Shown here: positions 8,216 through 14,075 of the stretch, piece by piece | How the letters are laid out: each line of letters opens with the position of its first letter | Position numbering within the stretch: the stretch's first letter is position 1 | Assembly: GCA_041658665.1 (NCBI GenBank) | Contig: JBAZZR010000001.1 | Coordinates: forward strand, 384,576 to 448,575 | Source of the DNA: Patescibacteria group bacterium | GTDB taxonomy: Bacteria; Patescibacteriota; Patescibacteriia; Patescibacteriales; UBA12465 | Direction: 5' to 3' | DNA: 64,000 bases | Notes under the pieces: generated by a model | Database searches by the model: none | Seen by the model: the letters and a program-made list of their open reading frames with translations, nothing else | What the model was told of the DNA's origin: nothing | Program-made: the position numbers and the translations under genes

Positions 8216-10021
8216 ATGGGTCAGAGCGAAGAAATAAAATCAAAACTGGATATCGTCGAAGTTATCAGAGAATATGTCCCGGTTAAAGCCGTTGGGGCTA
8301 ATTTTCAAGCGGTTTGCCCCTTTCATAACGAGAAGACGCCGTCTTTTATTATTTCCCCAGATAAGCAGATTTGGCATTGTTTTGGTTGCAGTCGGGGCGG
8401 CGACGTTTTTGCTTTCGTGATGGAAAAAGAAAATTTAAATTTTATCGAAGCCTTGCGTCTTCTCGCTAATAAAGCAGGCGTAGTTCTAAAATATGAAAAG
8501 TCAGATAATTATGCTAAACGGAATCGAGTTTTAGATATTTTAGAATTAAGCGGTAAATATTATAATCATGTGCTTAGTACGCCGGTGGGCGGCCAGGCAC
8601 AAGACTACTTATTAAAACGCGGCTTAGAGTCAGAGACAATTAAAGAGTGGCAGTTGGGCTATAGTCCTGACGCTTGGGATAATCTTTATCGGTTTTTAAG
8701 AGAGCGTCCTTTAAGTGGCCCGAAGTATACCGATGAGGAGATTCTAGCGGCCGGACTAATTATTAAAAAAGAAGGTGGTCGTTCGTATTATGATCGTTTT
8801 CGCGATCGTCTAATGTTTCCGATTTGGGACGTTAATAATAATTTAATTGCTTTTACCGCCCGCGTTAATCCCGCCAAAGAAAAAACGGAAAAGATGGGTA
8901 AATATATCAATAGTCCGCAAACAGGAGTTTATGATAAAAGTAAAGTTCTTTTTGCTTTAAATAAAGCGAAGAATCAGATCCGCCAAGATGATTTAGCGAT
9001 CGTCGTTGAAGGGCAGATGGATGTTATTGCCTGTCATAAACATGGCTTTAAAAATGTGATTGCTTCTTCGGGGACCGCTTTAACCGTCGATCAGATTACT
9101 TTAGTTAAACGTTATACTAAAAATATTGCTTTGTTGTTTGATATGGACGACGCCGGGCAATTAGCTGCTGACCGCGGAATTAAAGAAGTATTGGCGCAAG
9201 AATTAAATTTAAAAATTATTATTTTATCGGGTTATAAAGATCCGGATGAATGTTTAAATAAAAATCCGGATGATTTTAAACGAGCCATTAGCGAAGCGAA
9301 GCCGATGTTAGATTATTATTTTGATAAAATTAGCGCTAATTTAGACTTAGAACAATTAGACAATAAGCGCTTAGTGCGCGACAAGATGTTTACCATGATT
9401 AGTCTAGTTTCTAATAAAACAGAACAAGGCTATTGGCTTAAAAAACTTAGCGAAGAGTTAAATTTTTATGAGTTAGATACTCGTGAGGAATTCGCGAAGT
9501 GGCAAGCCAAAATTAGCGTATTAAAAGATAAAGAAACTAGAAAAAATAACCAATTAGCCGGTCATAATTTACCGTCAGAATTAAGCCGCGAAGATAAATT
9601 AGCTGAGCTTTTACTGGCCATTCTCCTAAAATTTCCGGAACTTATTAATTATAGCGCTAGTAACTTAGAGCCGGATTATTTAAATACGGAATTAGCGAAG
9701 TTTTACAAGGAATTTATAATCCATTATAATAGAAGCAACACTTTAGATTATGAAAATTTTCGCTTATATTTAGAAGAAAATTATCCCGGTGATGAGAATT
9801 TTCTAGATAAACTTATTCTCCTGGGCGAAAAAGAGTTTTATAATTATGATTATACTCAAATTAAGTCGGAATTGTCAGGTATTATTAGCGAGTTAAAGAA
9901 ATATGGTAAGCAGAGAAAAATACAGCAACTACAGCGAGCGATAGCGATCGCCGAAAAAAATGGCCAGGCTGAAGAGTTAGGCTTGCTAATGAATGATTTA
10001 AAAAATTTAATGATCTCCTAA
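8216..10021 (+). CDS. dnaG: DNA primase
   Basis: 601 aa. CHC2 zinc finger ([11 protein letters not shown]...[11 protein letters not shown]) and a TOPRIM region (VVEGQMDV...DMDDAG). Classic dnaG-rpoD pairing. Confidence 0.9.
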
Positions 10022-10026
10022 TTATT

Positions 10027-11358
10027 ATGGCTAAAAAAAAGCCGGAAAAAATTAAAAAACATCAGGTTAATAAGAAGTCGGCTAAAAAGAGTCCGATTAT
10101 TAAAGCTAAAGATAATCGTGTTGTTAAGACCGAAAAATTCCGCAAGATAAAGACAACTAATAAGAAAACAAAAAAAGAAAAAAAGTCAGCGGCATTTTCC
10201 CGAACAAAGGTTCATCGATCGAAGGATTTAGTGCGGGTCAGGGAAGAACATATAGCAGTAAAACCAACGGAAGAGGCGATAAAAAAGTTAATTGATAAGG
10301 GGCGACTGCGCGGCTTCGTTACCGAAACCGAATTATTATATTTGTTTCCGGAAATTGAAGAGTATGTTTATGACTATGATGTCTTTTTAGGCGAACTGCA
10401 AAGAAGCGGCGTCAGAATTATGGAAGATTCTGGCCGAATTTTAGATACGGCAGAAAAGAAAGCTCAAGAGCCGGTTTTAACGGGTCGCGCCTTAGCTCAT
10501 CAGAACGCTCTTAATATTGATTTATCGAAATTAAGCGCTGACTCTATTCAGATGTATTTGAAAGAAATTGGCAAGGTCCCTCTTTTAAGCGGCGATGAAG
10601 AAGTCGAATTAGCGAAGCGGAAAGAGAAGGGCGATAAGGAGGCGGAGAAAAAAATAATTGAAGCGAATTTGCGTCTCGTTGTTTCTATCGCTAAGAAATT
10701 TGCCGGCGCTAAAGGCATGAGTTTACTGGACTTAATTCAAGAAGGAAATATCGGTTTATTTCGGGCGGTCGAAAAATTTGAGTATCGGAAGGGCTATAAA
10801 TTTTCTACTTATGCGACCTGGTGGATCCGCCAGGCGATTACGCGTGCTTTAGCCGATCAGTCGCGGACTATTCGTATTCCGGTTCATATGGTCGAAAATA
10901 TTAATAAATTTCAACAGGTGCAGCGTAATTTAATCCAAGAATTAGGGCGTGAACCGCTTGCTGACGAAATCGCTTCCGAAATGGGGGAGAGTATTGAAAA
11001 AGTTCGTTATATTATGAAAATATCTCAGGACACTATTTCGCTTGAGACAACTATTGGGGACGATGGCGAGGACTCGACTTTAGAAGATTTTATTGAAGAC
11101 GTTAAGAATATTACGCCGGATCGCGCCGCCGCTTTACAGCTTTTAAAAGATTACGTGAAGAATATTGTCGCTCAGCTATCCCCACGAGAACAGAAGATTT
11201 TAGAAATGCGTTTTGGTTTAATTGACGGTGTTGCCCATACTTTAGAAGAGGTCGGGCAGGAATTCGAGGTTACTCGGGAACGTATTCGTCAGATTGAGTC
11301 TAAAGCCCTAGAGAAGATTCGGAAGTTTAAGGGTTTAGAGAAGTTGAGGGATTATTAA
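10027..11358 (+). CDS. rpoD: RNA polymerase primary sigma factor (sigma-70)
   Basis: 443 aa. Lys-rich N-terminus. Conserved regions 2.x ([16 protein letters not shown]), 3 and 4.2 ([20 protein letters not shown]). Confidence 0.9.
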
Positions 11359-11400
11359 TTGATAGTAAGAAAAGTTAGATAAATTAATATTGTATATAAT

Positions 11401-11428
11401 AAAAATAGGCCAAAGTTAGCCTATTTTT
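11401..11428 (+). terminator. Intrinsic terminator after rpoD
   Basis: TAGGC-N8-GCCTA hairpin followed by a T-run. Confidence 0.6.
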
Positions 11429-11484
11429 ACTTTCAGATAATTAACCTATAAAATAGCCTATTCTTTTATTCGGTTTTTGATTAT

Positions 11485-11512
11485 TTGACATAACTCTCAT
11501 ATTTGCTAGAAT
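11485..11512 (+). promoter_or_regulatory. Sigma-70-type promoter for the tRNA gene
   Basis: TTGACA (11485-11490), 16-nt spacer, TAGAAT (11507-11512), about 50 nt upstream of the tRNA 5' end. Confidence 0.5.
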
Positions 11513-11564
11513 ATATATACAAAATGTTTTAAAACATTTTTGTTTTTTGAAAGTAATTTAATAT

Positions 11565-11867
11565 TCCCGGGTAGCGCAGCGGTAGCGCAGTTGGCTGTGA
11601 ACAATAAACGCAGCTTCCTCAGGTAACTGAGGTCGAATAACGAGGTGAATTGTCTGGAAGCCTAAATCCGTAAGGACATGGTAATCAGCAGCCAAGCCCT
11701 GACTTGTCAGGAAAGGTTCAGAGACTATCTCGAAAGAGAGTAGGTCCGTCTAGGAGACGGCCCGAAGCGCCTCGCGCCCTTATAGGGTGATGATATAGTC
11801 CACCCCATTAAGAAATTAGTGGATAAGTGTAACCAATTGGTCGTCGGTTCGAATCCGACCCCGGGAG
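11565..11867 (+). tRNA. tRNA-Asn(GUU) interrupted in the anticodon loop by a group I intron
   Basis: Exon 1 is 11565-11598 and exon 2 is 11830-11867. Together they fold into a full cloverleaf: acceptor TCCCGGG/CCCGGGA, D-arm GCGC-AGCGGTA-GCGC, anticodon stem GTTGG/CCAAT, T-arm GTCGG-TTCGAAT-CCGAC. The joined loop CTGTTAA gives anticodon GTT. U1:A72 and G73 fit bacterial tRNA-Asn. No encoded CCA. Confidence 0.8.
11599..11829 (+). ncRNA. Group I self-splicing intron (small, ORF-less, tRNA-type/IC3-like)
   Basis: P1 forms between exon GGCTGT and intron GCAGCT (11610-11615), with a U.G wobble at the splice site. Core strings GGACATGGTAATCAGCAGCCAAGCCC, GGTTCAGAGACTA and GATATAGTCC parallel the Tetrahymena/Azoarcus cores. 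GAAA and GTAA-type hairpins are present. The terminal base is G. Confidence 0.8.
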
Positions 11868-11873
11868 CTAAAT

Positions 11874-11906
11874 AAAAATAGAGGCTAATAGCCTCTATTT
11901 TTATTT
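11874..11906 (+). terminator. Intrinsic terminator after the tRNA
   Basis: ATAGAGGC-TAATA-GCCTCTAT hairpin followed by TTTTTATTT. Confidence 0.7.
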
Positions 11907-11907
11907 C

Positions 11908-12088
11908 ATCTTCAGGATTTAGGGATTCGAACAGGTCAGAAGCGAAACAAGTTCGAGACGCTATTTCGAGCGGCGAGAACGCAGGTGAGCGTCGCTAAGC
12001 CCGCCCCGGGCGGGCTTAGCGCTGACCCAGGGCAAGTGAGCGACGCGGAAGCGGAGCGAGCGCGATAATCCCTATCCCCGAGCAGTTT
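11908..12088 (+). other. GC-rich structured element (candidate small RNA or recombination site)
   Basis: No ORF, yet much more GC-rich than its surroundings. 13-bp GC hairpin CGCTAAGCCCGCC-CCG-GGCGGGCTTAGCG (11993-12021). Closing pair TAGGGATT (11920-27) / AATCCCTA (12067-74). Sits between two terminators. Confidence 0.35.
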
Positions 12089-12116
12089 TAAATAGCCCTG
12101 AAACAGGGCTATTTTT
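12089..12116 (+). terminator. Intrinsic terminator closing the GC-rich element
   Basis: ATAGCCCTG-AAA-CAGGGCTAT hairpin followed by TTTTT. Confidence 0.65.
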
Positions 12117-12161
12117 GATATGGAGTTTATTGCCTTAGAACAGTATGTTATAATTAAATAT

Positions 12162-12881: not shown

Positions 12882-14075
12882 ATGACTAATGTAAATAATG
12901 CAAAATTTAAAGATATTCCTTTAAAGCTTTATGACCCCAAATGGGGCAGTCAATTAGCTAATGCTGTTATTGAGCTTGAAAAATTAAGGGTTAAAAAGCT
13001 TGGTGGCCCTGTTCCTCCATATATCTTTTTTCAAATAAAAGATATTTTTCAGATTTTAGAGAGCTTGGGCTCAGCCAGAATTGAAGGAAATCATACTACT
13101 TTAGCTGAATTTGTGGAAAAGATTATTGATAATCCTAACAGGCAAACTAAAATAGAAAAAGATAGGGAGATTTTTAATATTGAAAGAGCAATAGATTTTA
13201 TCGAAAAAAATGTAGATAGTAAAACAAAAATTAGCCGTGCTTTCATCTCGGAAATACACAAAATTTTAGTTGATGGTTTAACCCCACCTCCCGGCGGAGA
13301 AGGTTCAAGATATCCGGGTGAAATGCGCCACGAGAATGTTGTTATTACAAAATCAAATCATATTCCGCCAGAAGCTATAAAAGTTTCTGATTATTTTAAC
13401 GAGTTGATTACATTTATTAATCAGCCTATCGAATCCCAATATCATCTTTTAGCGATAGCCATATCTCATCATCGTATGGCTTGGATACATCCTTTTGATA
13501 ATGGTAATGGACGTTTAGTGAGAATGTTTACTTATGCCCTCCTGATTAAGCAGGGTTTTCAGGTTAAAAGCGGTAGGATTTTGAATCCGACGGCCGTATT
13601 TTGCATGGATAGGGATAAGTATTATGATATGCTAGCGCTAGCTGATTCCGGGGAAGAAGAAAAAACATTGGAATGGTGCTTATACGTTCTAGAGGGACTA
13701 CGAACAGAAATAGAAAAAATTGATAAGCTTCTTAATATTTTTTATATTACCAATAACATTCTTTTACCGATGTTATCCTTTGCCTTCGAAAATCAGTATA
13801 TTACTAAACGTGAACATGAAATTCTTTCGGCACTAGTAAAAAGTAAAAAAATGATTATCAAATCTTCTGATTTAATAAAAATGATTGGGAAGGAATCCCC
13901 TGTACAGCGATCAAGAATATTAAGAAGACTAAAGGAAAAACATATGTTAATTCCTCTAGAAGATAAAGGTAGGGTATATACAATCGGATTTGCCAATAAT
14001 TATCTATTGCGTGGGATGATACATATTCTTGAAAAAAATGATTTTATTCCTTTATCTCTAAATAATAAAAATTAA
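12882..14075 (+). CDS. Fic family protein (AMPylase-type) with C-terminal winged-helix-like domain
   Basis: 397 aa. Canonical Fic motif HPFDNGNGR. N-terminal SARIEG matches the (S/T)xxxE(G/N) auto-inhibitory helix motif. Confidence 0.85.
   Translation: MTNVNNAKFKDIPLKLYDPKWGSQLANAVIELEKLRVKKLGGPVPPYIFFQIKDIFQILESLGSARIEGNHTTLAEFVEKIIDNPNRQTKIEKDREIFNIERAIDFIEKNVDSKTKISRAFISEIHKILVDGLTPPPGGEGSRYPGEMRHENVVITKSNHIPPEAIKVSDYFNELITFINQPIESQYHLLAIAISHHRMAWIHPFDNGNGRLVRMFTYALLIKQGFQVKSGRILNPTAVFCMDRDKYYDMLALADSGEEEKTLEWCLYVLEGLRTEIEKIDKLLNIFYITNNILLPMLSFAFENQYITKREHEILSALVKSKKMIIKSSDLIKMIGKESPVQRSRILRRLKEKHMLIPLEDKGRVYTIGFANNYLLRGMIHILEKNDFIPLSLNNKN

Follow-up and report, generated by a model that had tools for sequence, protein, structure and literature searches.

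The stretch of DNA analysed here, a 64,000-nt window from a Patescibacteria group bacterium, carries a gene for tRNA-Asn(GUU) that is split in its anticodon loop, and we hold with high confidence that this is a Patescibacterium gene interrupted by a 231-nt group I intron of IA type, without an open reading frame (ORF), inserted between tRNA positions 35 and 36 and belonging to an intron family that has already been published. The 5′ exon (11565..11598, 34 nt), the intron (11599..11829) and the 3′ exon (11830..11867, 38 nt, beginning TAACC) lie where an initial annotation of the window had placed them; these and all features described below are on the + strand. The 5′ exon equals the first 34 nt of the intact tRNA-Asn genes that stand at the same locus in related genomes; it holds the acceptor 5′ strand, the D arm, the 5′ strand of the anticodon stem and the loop nucleotides C32-U33-G34-U35, and it ends in ...GGCTGT, with U11598 as the -1 U of the splice site. 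The 3′ exon, delimited by ARAGORN on the spliced sequence and by identity to the same intact genes, supplies U36, A37 and A38, the 3′ strand of the anticodon stem, the variable loop, the T arm, the acceptor 3′ strand and the discriminator G11867.

The only real ambiguity in this observation is which junction is used. Joining 11565-11598 to 11830-11867 gives the canonical 72-nt cloverleaf that was first proposed, with the loop CTGTTAA and the anticodon GUU, and ARAGORN calls it tRNA-Asn(gtt); joining 11565-11596 to 11828-11867 gives a product that the same program calls tRNA-Thr(tgt). With default settings ARAGORN finds zero tRNAs in the whole 64-kb window, and when introns are allowed it picks Thr(tgt) i(33,231) for this gene, which speaks for a tRNA-Thr(UGU) with an intron at 33/34 (junction 11596^11828, loop CUUGUAA; here and below ^ marks an exon boundary); at that junction, too, the 5′ splice site is preceded by a U and the 3′ splice site by a G (11827). 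Against this stand the syntenic genes of relatives. A DnaG scan, taking one genome per species, gave 80 syntenic loci, 29 of them with an uninterrupted tRNA-Asn(gtt) and 28 with a split gene, including that of the closest relative (L003), whose gene is cut by the end of its contig. Every one of the 29 intact genes reads ...CTGTTAA..., the intact allele has the sequence GCAGTTGGCTGTTAACCAATTGG, and 13 genomes (L004, L006, L007, L009, L028, L031, L032, L034, L039, L047, L054, L070 and L077) have an intact gene identical at 72/72 positions to the Asn-junction product of the window; the Thr-junction sequence ...GGCTTGTAACC... occurs in none of the 80 loci. The split alleles, after motif re-mapping, are all bounded as ...G(G/A)CTGT^G(A/G)A...GTG^TAA(C/T)CAAT. 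From the 72/72 identity, and from the lack of any locus with GGCTTGTAACC, we place the splice sites at 11598^11599 and 11829^11830: the window gene is tRNA-Asn(GUU) interrupted at 35/36 (CUGU^UAA), and this is the sole junction that reproduces the intact allele. A Thr junction would furthermore pair its -1 U11596 with A11612 by Watson-Crick bonds, whereas all 20 aligned sequences keep the U·G wobble at 11598; and the Thr miscall is documented for the Asn 35/36 family, a homologue of which gave an in vitro product that was sequenced as 35/36 (PMC13011429). The intact alleles and the position of the U·G wobble thus rule out the 33/34 junction, which the initial annotation had rightly set aside and which we consider vanishingly improbable.

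The window gene has no encoded CCA (GGGAG^CTA at 11865-11872). Roughly half of the intact genes at the syntenic loci encode it (GGGAGCCA), so that CCA encoding is polymorphic within the clade.

That the insertion is a group I intron, as had been proposed, is borne out by a match to Rfam family RF00028 of 86.3 bits (gathering score 50, E=1.4e-20, + strand, full-length model 1-253), the single Rfam match in a gathering-threshold scan of the window. The P1 that Rfam assigns within this match (11521-11552) was rejected: it is a misalignment onto an A/T palindrome in the tRNA leader (CAAAATGTTTTAAAACATTTTG plus a T-run) that folds at z=-0.02 relative to shuffles, and because P1 is misplaced onto this upstream hairpin, the start of the match at 11521 is not an intron boundary. 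The 303-nt pre-tRNA is more stable than its shuffled versions (z=-4.2), and its minimum free energy (MFE) fold, computed without constraints, shows the tRNA arms (acceptor, D and T) together with P1, P2, P3, P8, P9 and the two hairpins that follow P7. We built an explicit P1-P9 model with the P3/P7 pseudoknot, each pair of which is canonical in the window, and checked it on a MAFFT alignment of 20 sequences: the window intron, ten ORF-less syntenic introns (76-85% identical to it) and nine published Patescibacteria Asn introns (59-68%). Compensatory changes, on both sides of a pair, are found in 60 of 87 pairs (shuffles 33 ± 3, and 0/500 shuffles as high), with a covariation score of 0.426 as against 0.138 for shuffles and <=0.09 for controls in which the 3′ partners were slid.

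P1 (11593-11599 / 11609-11615; fold and covariation model) pairs exon GGCUGU and the first intron G with the internal guide CGCAGCU, in agreement with the pairing of GGCTGT to intron GCAGCT first described; the 5′ splice site is marked by the wobble U11598·G11610, conserved throughout the alignment, and the next pair inside the intron (35:45) varies (GC 13, AU 3, CG 3, UG 1). Its loop, L1, is 9 nt long in the window, and is the site of an HNH ORF in relatives. The CCUCAG-GUAA-CUGAGG hairpin that had also been pointed out is P2 (11617..11632), with compensatory changes in 6/6 pairs. P3 joins CGAGGUG (11641..11647) to CGCCUCG (11768..11774, placed by the covariation model), the helix having 98.6% of its cells paired and compensatory changes in 4/7 pairs. 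Between its strands stands the P4-P6 domain (11651..11717, from the same model), which comprises P4 (11651-11657 / 11685-11690; 99.2% paired, 5/6 pairs compensatory), P5 and P5a with a GUAA loop (11661-11681; covariation model), and P6 and P6a (11691-11717; 5/5 pairs of P6a compensatory).

P7 is formed by GACUA (11723..11727) and UAGUC (11796..11800), the latter inside AUAGUCC, which is invariant in the alignment, and makes the pseudoknot with P3. All five of its pairs are invariant in 20/20 sequences, so that covariation neither supports nor contradicts it; by analogy with group I introns in general, it would be expected to be the guanosine-binding helix. P8 (11775..11789; 94.9% paired, 4/5 pairs compensatory) and P9 (11805..11822, with a GAAA loop; 7/7 pairs compensatory) complete the core, and the intron ends, as first noted, in a G: the omega-G, G11829, after which the 3′ splice site lies, is G in 19/20 aligned sequences. 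Nearly all syntenic introns read ...AAGTG^TAACC at this boundary, L076 having ...ACGTG.

Compared with the Rfam consensus, the intron has 38 extra nucleotides after the 5′ strand of P7 and ahead of the 3′ strand of P3, and these correspond to P7.1 (UCUC-GAAA-GAGA, 11728-11739; MFE fold, 96.5% paired) and P7.2 (11743-11763; MFE fold, 8/8 pairs compensatory, but with only 74.8% of cells paired because distant members align poorly there). Such P7.1/P7.2 architecture is a hallmark of subgroup IA, and on this model the window intron appears to be of IA rather than IC type. The published record agrees: 25 of 28 introns at 35/36 belong to subgroup IA (PMC13011429), and four rows of Asn 35/36 introns, in the part of its subgroup table available to us, are labelled IA1. 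The initial annotation had likened core strings of the intron to the catalytic cores of Tetrahymena and Azoarcus; those strings are indeed present, but the parallel to these IC introns is generic, given the P7.1/P7.2 hairpins of the window intron.

The split gene lies downstream of genes for a D-Ala-D-Ala carboxypeptidase-like protein, a GtrA-like protein, dnaG (8216-10021) and rpoD (10027-11358), and upstream of Nudix, Fic, TspO-like and CrtI-family genes. Exact matches to the RpoD protein come from metagenome-assembled contigs only. The best DnaG match, 96% identical, is that of L003, titled ‘Patescibacteria group bacterium’; the other relatives are 46-75% identical, and most of them bear the titles Candidatus Falkowbacteria, Parcubacteria or Patescibacteria; Falkowbacteria are placed in the Patescibacteria group by NCBI. 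By these matches, then, the window is DNA of a Patescibacterium related to Candidatus Falkowbacteria (a lineage that probably belongs to the GTDB class ABY1), and the dnaG-rpoD context is chromosomal, not that of a phage or plasmid. G+C content in the window is 31-40%.

Dozens of third-party annotation (TPA) metagenome-assembled genomes (MAGs) at these loci, L005, L007, L011, L012 and L014 among them, with DnaG identities of 50-75%, are titled ‘uncultured Gammaproteobacteria’; these labels look wrong (placeholders or errors), since the genomes share the dnaG-rpoD-tRNA-Asn order and DnaG identity with Falkowbacteria/Patescibacteria MAGs. Across the window (1-64000), 44 of 46 ORFs of at least 150 aa lie on the + strand and the GC skew is positive in each 2-kb bin, which together indicate strong co-orientation. 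The Fic-domain gene (12882-14075) weakly matches ‘mobile mystery protein B’, and the region downstream of the tRNA may vary in its genes or resemble an island.

Comparison of the syntenic loci reveals four states of the insertion site among species with identical exons: empty (the 29 intact loci); occupied by an intron of 547-620 nt with an ORF of 102-119 aa in the P1 loop; occupied by an intron with a truncated, decayed-looking ORF remnant (L061 and L052); and occupied by an ORF-less intron of 227-258 nt, as in the window. ARAGORN labels 27 of the split genes variously as Thr(tgt) i33, Tyr(gta) i35, Ser or Asn. The ORF of the relatives is 72% identical in amino acids (E=1e-54) to that of the published intron of a Paceibacteria genome, GCA_023898525.1. 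In the closest relative the intron is of the long form (L003:9349-9601): its P1 loop holds an HNH-like ORF (MIKDKRKYADRAEYLK...), inside which the contig ends. Very close relatives thus differ in whether the endonuclease is present, and loss of the ORF or replacement of the intron was recent in the window lineage. A trace of the ORF is still legible: in L012, L030 and other long introns the P1 3′ strand together with P2 encodes the C-terminal residues of the ORF, ...TQLPQVIEVE, and window positions 11607-11639 still read TQLPQVTEVE-stop in the ORF frame, the body of the ORF being gone. Between the end of rpoD at 11358 and the next gene start at 12120 (that is, over 11359-12119) there is no ORF of at least 50 aa on either strand, in accord with the original claim that no homing endonuclease is encoded; the homing endonuclease that marks a mobile group I intron is lacking from the window intron, which is therefore not autonomously mobile.

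A second gene copy is seen at one of these loci, L036:10646-11001, where an intact-looking tRNA-Asn(GTT), whose anticodon stem differs (CAGAC/GUCUG), stands directly upstream of the split tRNA-Asn, with an N-masked stretch between the two. This would be a rare case of intron-less and intron-bearing copies side by side.

In our reading, the published Patescibacteria Asn 35/36 family spreads by means of the HNH homing endonuclease whose ORF lies in the P1 loop; the copy in the window, having lost that ORF, represents a stage of the homing cycle at which the intron is immobile yet apparently remains catalytic. The Falkowbacteria-like clade might even offer an unusually complete snapshot of this cycle at one essential, single-copy tRNA gene, although we put this forward tentatively and lean somewhat against it.

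The split gene has the appearance of its own transcription unit, with a promoter-like site on one side and a terminator-like hairpin on the other. The former (11485..11512; TTGACA, a 16-nt spacer and TG-TAGAAT) matches consensus at 11/12 positions and has the TG of an extended -10; as a consensus match it would be predicted to start transcription ~45 nt upstream of the tRNA. The latter (11870..11906) is a 17-bp hairpin flanked by an A-run and a T-run (-19.7 kcal/mol, z=-7.05) that may serve as a terminator; a strict terminator scan did not list the 11870-11906 hairpin, and folding shows it as a strong hairpin with a T-run. A separate hairpin follows rpoD (11400-11429).

These features bear on whether the split gene could be a tRNA-Asn pseudogene holding a dead, relic intron, with asparagine decoded through an intact copy elsewhere in the genome. 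Loss of the homing endonuclease ORF, which belongs to a later stage of the homing cycle, would fit such a relic, as would the intact-looking second tRNA-Asn beside the split one of L036, and the rest of the genome lies outside what the window shows. However, the window intron has zero private substitutions at the columns that are invariant in the other 19 aligned members (90 columns being invariant overall); its U·G pair, omega-G and P7 are intact, and all its modelled helices fit the covariation of the family; its exons are identical to functional-looking intact genes; and it has its own promoter-like site and terminator-like hairpin. Moreover, intron-bearing and intron-less copies with the same anticodon rarely coexist, and Patescibacteria have mostly a single tRNA-Asn in the available rows of a published tRNA-count table (PMC13011429). 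A dead relic is therefore improbable in our view. Signs of decay are absent from the window copy, which may well be catalytic, and the single tRNA-Asn in most of those available rows makes it plausible that asparagine decoding in this organism would depend wholly on splicing.

We propose that the split gene would be transcribed from its own promoter, and that the intron would then fold such that P1 presents U11598 in its U·G wobble with G11610. Exogenous guanosine, held at P7, would attack the 5′ splice site; G11829 would next occupy the same G-site, and the freed 3′-OH of U11598 would attack after G11829, so that ligation of ...CUGU to UAACC... would restore the GUU anticodon. The exons would probably be held together by the anticodon stem and not by a P10 helix. 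Some group I introns, some of type IA among them, need protein helpers in vivo, and the lack of a clear P10 on inspection, together with the small peripheral elements of this intron, would suit an intron that splices in the cell only with a protein cofactor or chaperone, tying the supply of tRNA-Asn to a host factor. Two observations make such a dependence very improbable: no candidate cofactor gene adjoins the locus, and a homologue with the same core and exon context self-splices in vitro with GTP alone (PMC13011429).

Several points weigh against our overall reading of a Patescibacterium tRNA-Asn(GUU) gene with an ORF-less IA-type intron of the published family. The analysis shows the sequence, structure, homology, junction and host lineage, while catalysis, splicing in vivo and promoter use are properties that we infer for the window copy; and, the scope of our tRNA scan being the 64-kb window, another tRNA-Asn may lie outside it. 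Inspection gave no convincing P10 helix joining the start of the 3′ exon (UAACC) to the bases that precede the guide. The intron was placed in subgroup IA by its P7.1/P7.2 hairpins and by how its homologues are classified in the literature, not by a subgroup covariance model. The ORF of the relatives scores 18.9-19.9 bits against Pfam HNH, just below the gathering score of 21.4. Lastly, standard pairs fill 94.2% of the pair cells of the alignment, as against 33-44% in controls with the 3′ partners shifted by 1-3 columns, a comparison that is inflated because the model was built from the window sequence; the counts of compensatory changes given above are less affected by this origin of the model and are the stronger evidence.

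Phage and plasmid sources for the intron were also considered and rejected: BLAST matches to phages are limited to the core (71-82% identity over <=46% of the query), and plasmids gave a single 56-nt match. The pattern of core plus junction was found on 12 contigs of viral collections, and 11 of the 12 introns lie in phage protein-coding genes. The twelfth contig, L094 (IMGVR_UViG_3300025600_000123), has the same split tRNA-Asn and is host-like; there (L094:1217-6038) the tRNA has as its immediate neighbours a large serine recombinase, with Resolvase, Recombinase and Zn-ribbon domains, and an inovirus-like module in which a G2P-like replication protein is accompanied by a Zot-like ATPase, which is most simply explained by an inovirus-like prophage integrated at or beside the tRNA-Asn of a Patescibacterium. 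Near-identical group I introns with the same GGTTCAGAGACTA...GATGAKATAGTCC core are found in protein-coding context on IMG/VR contigs L083, L086-L088, L092 and L093.

The initial annotation had regarded a tRNA-Asn(GUU) host with an insertion at 35/36 as unusual. This is out of date, as the Asn 35/36 family has been published for the same phylum, validated in vitro and found to be enriched in Patescibacteria. Williams (2020; bioRxiv 10.1101/2020.01.27.920355) surveyed 80,413 bacterial genomes and extended the four classical intron-bearing tRNA settings to 21; the class ‘Asn.4Ug’ of that study, and its occasional mislabelling as Thr.2Ug, are known to us as quoted in PMC13011429. In the latter paper, Nakagawa et al. 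(2026, mSystems) described 15 introns in tRNA-Asn(GUU) and 3 in tRNA-Asp at 35/36 among 95 complete Patescibacteria genomes, and, across 4,934 complete genomes of bacteria, counted 28 introns at this position, of which Patescibacteria account for 19; they found HNH endonuclease genes in four Patescibacteria Asn introns and noted that ARAGORN and tFind often label these genes Thr(UGU) 33/34. They showed precise, GTP-dependent self-splicing in vitro at 35/36 for the intron of GCA_016700035.1, sequencing the product, and an omega-G-to-C mutant of it blocked exon ligation. The window element is thus a member of a published, experimentally supported family, and is not new.

As to lineage, the intron-bearing Asn genes tabulated in PMC13011429 come from the classes WWE3, Saccharimonadia, UBA1384, Paceibacteria, Microgenomatia and Dojkabacteria, from which the Falkowbacteria-related lineage of the window differs; neither CP066698 (L030) nor ‘Falkowbacteria’ occurs in the supplement of that paper. 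In its tRNA-count table ‘ABY1’ appears four times, and the two of these rows whose counts were available to us, GCA_016699205.1 and GCA_016699775.1, have one tRNA-Asn each by tRNAscan-SE. If the window lineage does belong to GTDB class ABY1, the Asn 35/36 family gains one more class, where only intact tRNA-Asn has been reported.

The main practical value of the finding lies in correct annotation, a point already made by Nakagawa et al. (PMC13011429): since default finders come up blank at this gene and ARAGORN otherwise calls it Thr, an automated pipeline would score the genome as lacking tRNA-Asn, lowering its completeness estimate, and could also credit it with a spurious extra tRNA-Thr. The same authors raised the speculative idea that an ORF-less intron might act as a GTP- or Mg-sensitive gate on the supply of tRNA-Asn in regulator-poor cells. 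For the study of intron gain and loss, the locus and its syntenic relatives provide a clean series (empty, endonuclease-bearing, with decayed ORF, and ORF-less) in a host gene likely to be both essential and present in one copy; the locus extends a known family by one lineage and raises no new question.

Compared with the published Patescibacteria Asn 35/36 family (Asn.4Ug), the window has the host tRNA, the insertion site and the phylum in common. It shares the -1 U and omega-G boundaries, and with them the ambiguous TGT...GTG^T context that leads ARAGORN and tFind to call Thr(UGU) 33/34; it shares the core sequences, namely the GCAGC guide, GGUGAAUUG, GGUAAUC.GCAGCCAAGC, AAGGUUCAGAGACUA and GAUAUAGUCC; and the published introns, 56-68% identical to that of the window, can be aligned with it end to end. 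The relatives of the window have the same HNH ORF in the P1 loop as the family, at the 72% amino-acid identity given above. The closest parallel with experimental support is the intron of GCA_016700035.1, from a different Patescibacteria class (Saccharimonadia), which has an identical anticodon stem-loop exon context (GCAGTTGGCTGT ^ ... GTG ^ TAACCAATTGG), the same GCAGC guide, no ORF and a similar length (234 nt vs 231 nt), and which, at 63% identity overall, agrees with the window intron at all 90 family-invariant columns. Saccharimonadia members differ in their P7.1/P7.2 region and are without the UCUC-GAAA-GAGA hairpin that is found in the window and in Paceibacteria members.

The classical bacterial tRNA introns, those of tRNA-Leu(UAA) at 34/35 in cyanobacteria and plastids, tRNA-fMet at 33/34, tRNA-Ile(CAU) of Azoarcus and tRNA-Arg(CCU) of Agrobacterium, resemble the window intron in being anticodon-loop group I ribozymes of ~200-250 nt, usually ORF-less, with a U·G pair at the splice site and an omega-G; they are, however, IC3 introns without P7.1/P7.2, at other loop positions of other tRNAs, whereas the window intron is IA-type and sits at 35/36 of tRNA-Asn. 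Phage introns of IA type, such as those in DNA polymerase genes, show 73-82% core similarity to the window over ~90-180 nt (P3-P7), but they occupy protein-coding hosts and have no tRNA exon context, so that their likeness to the window intron is limited to the catalytic core.

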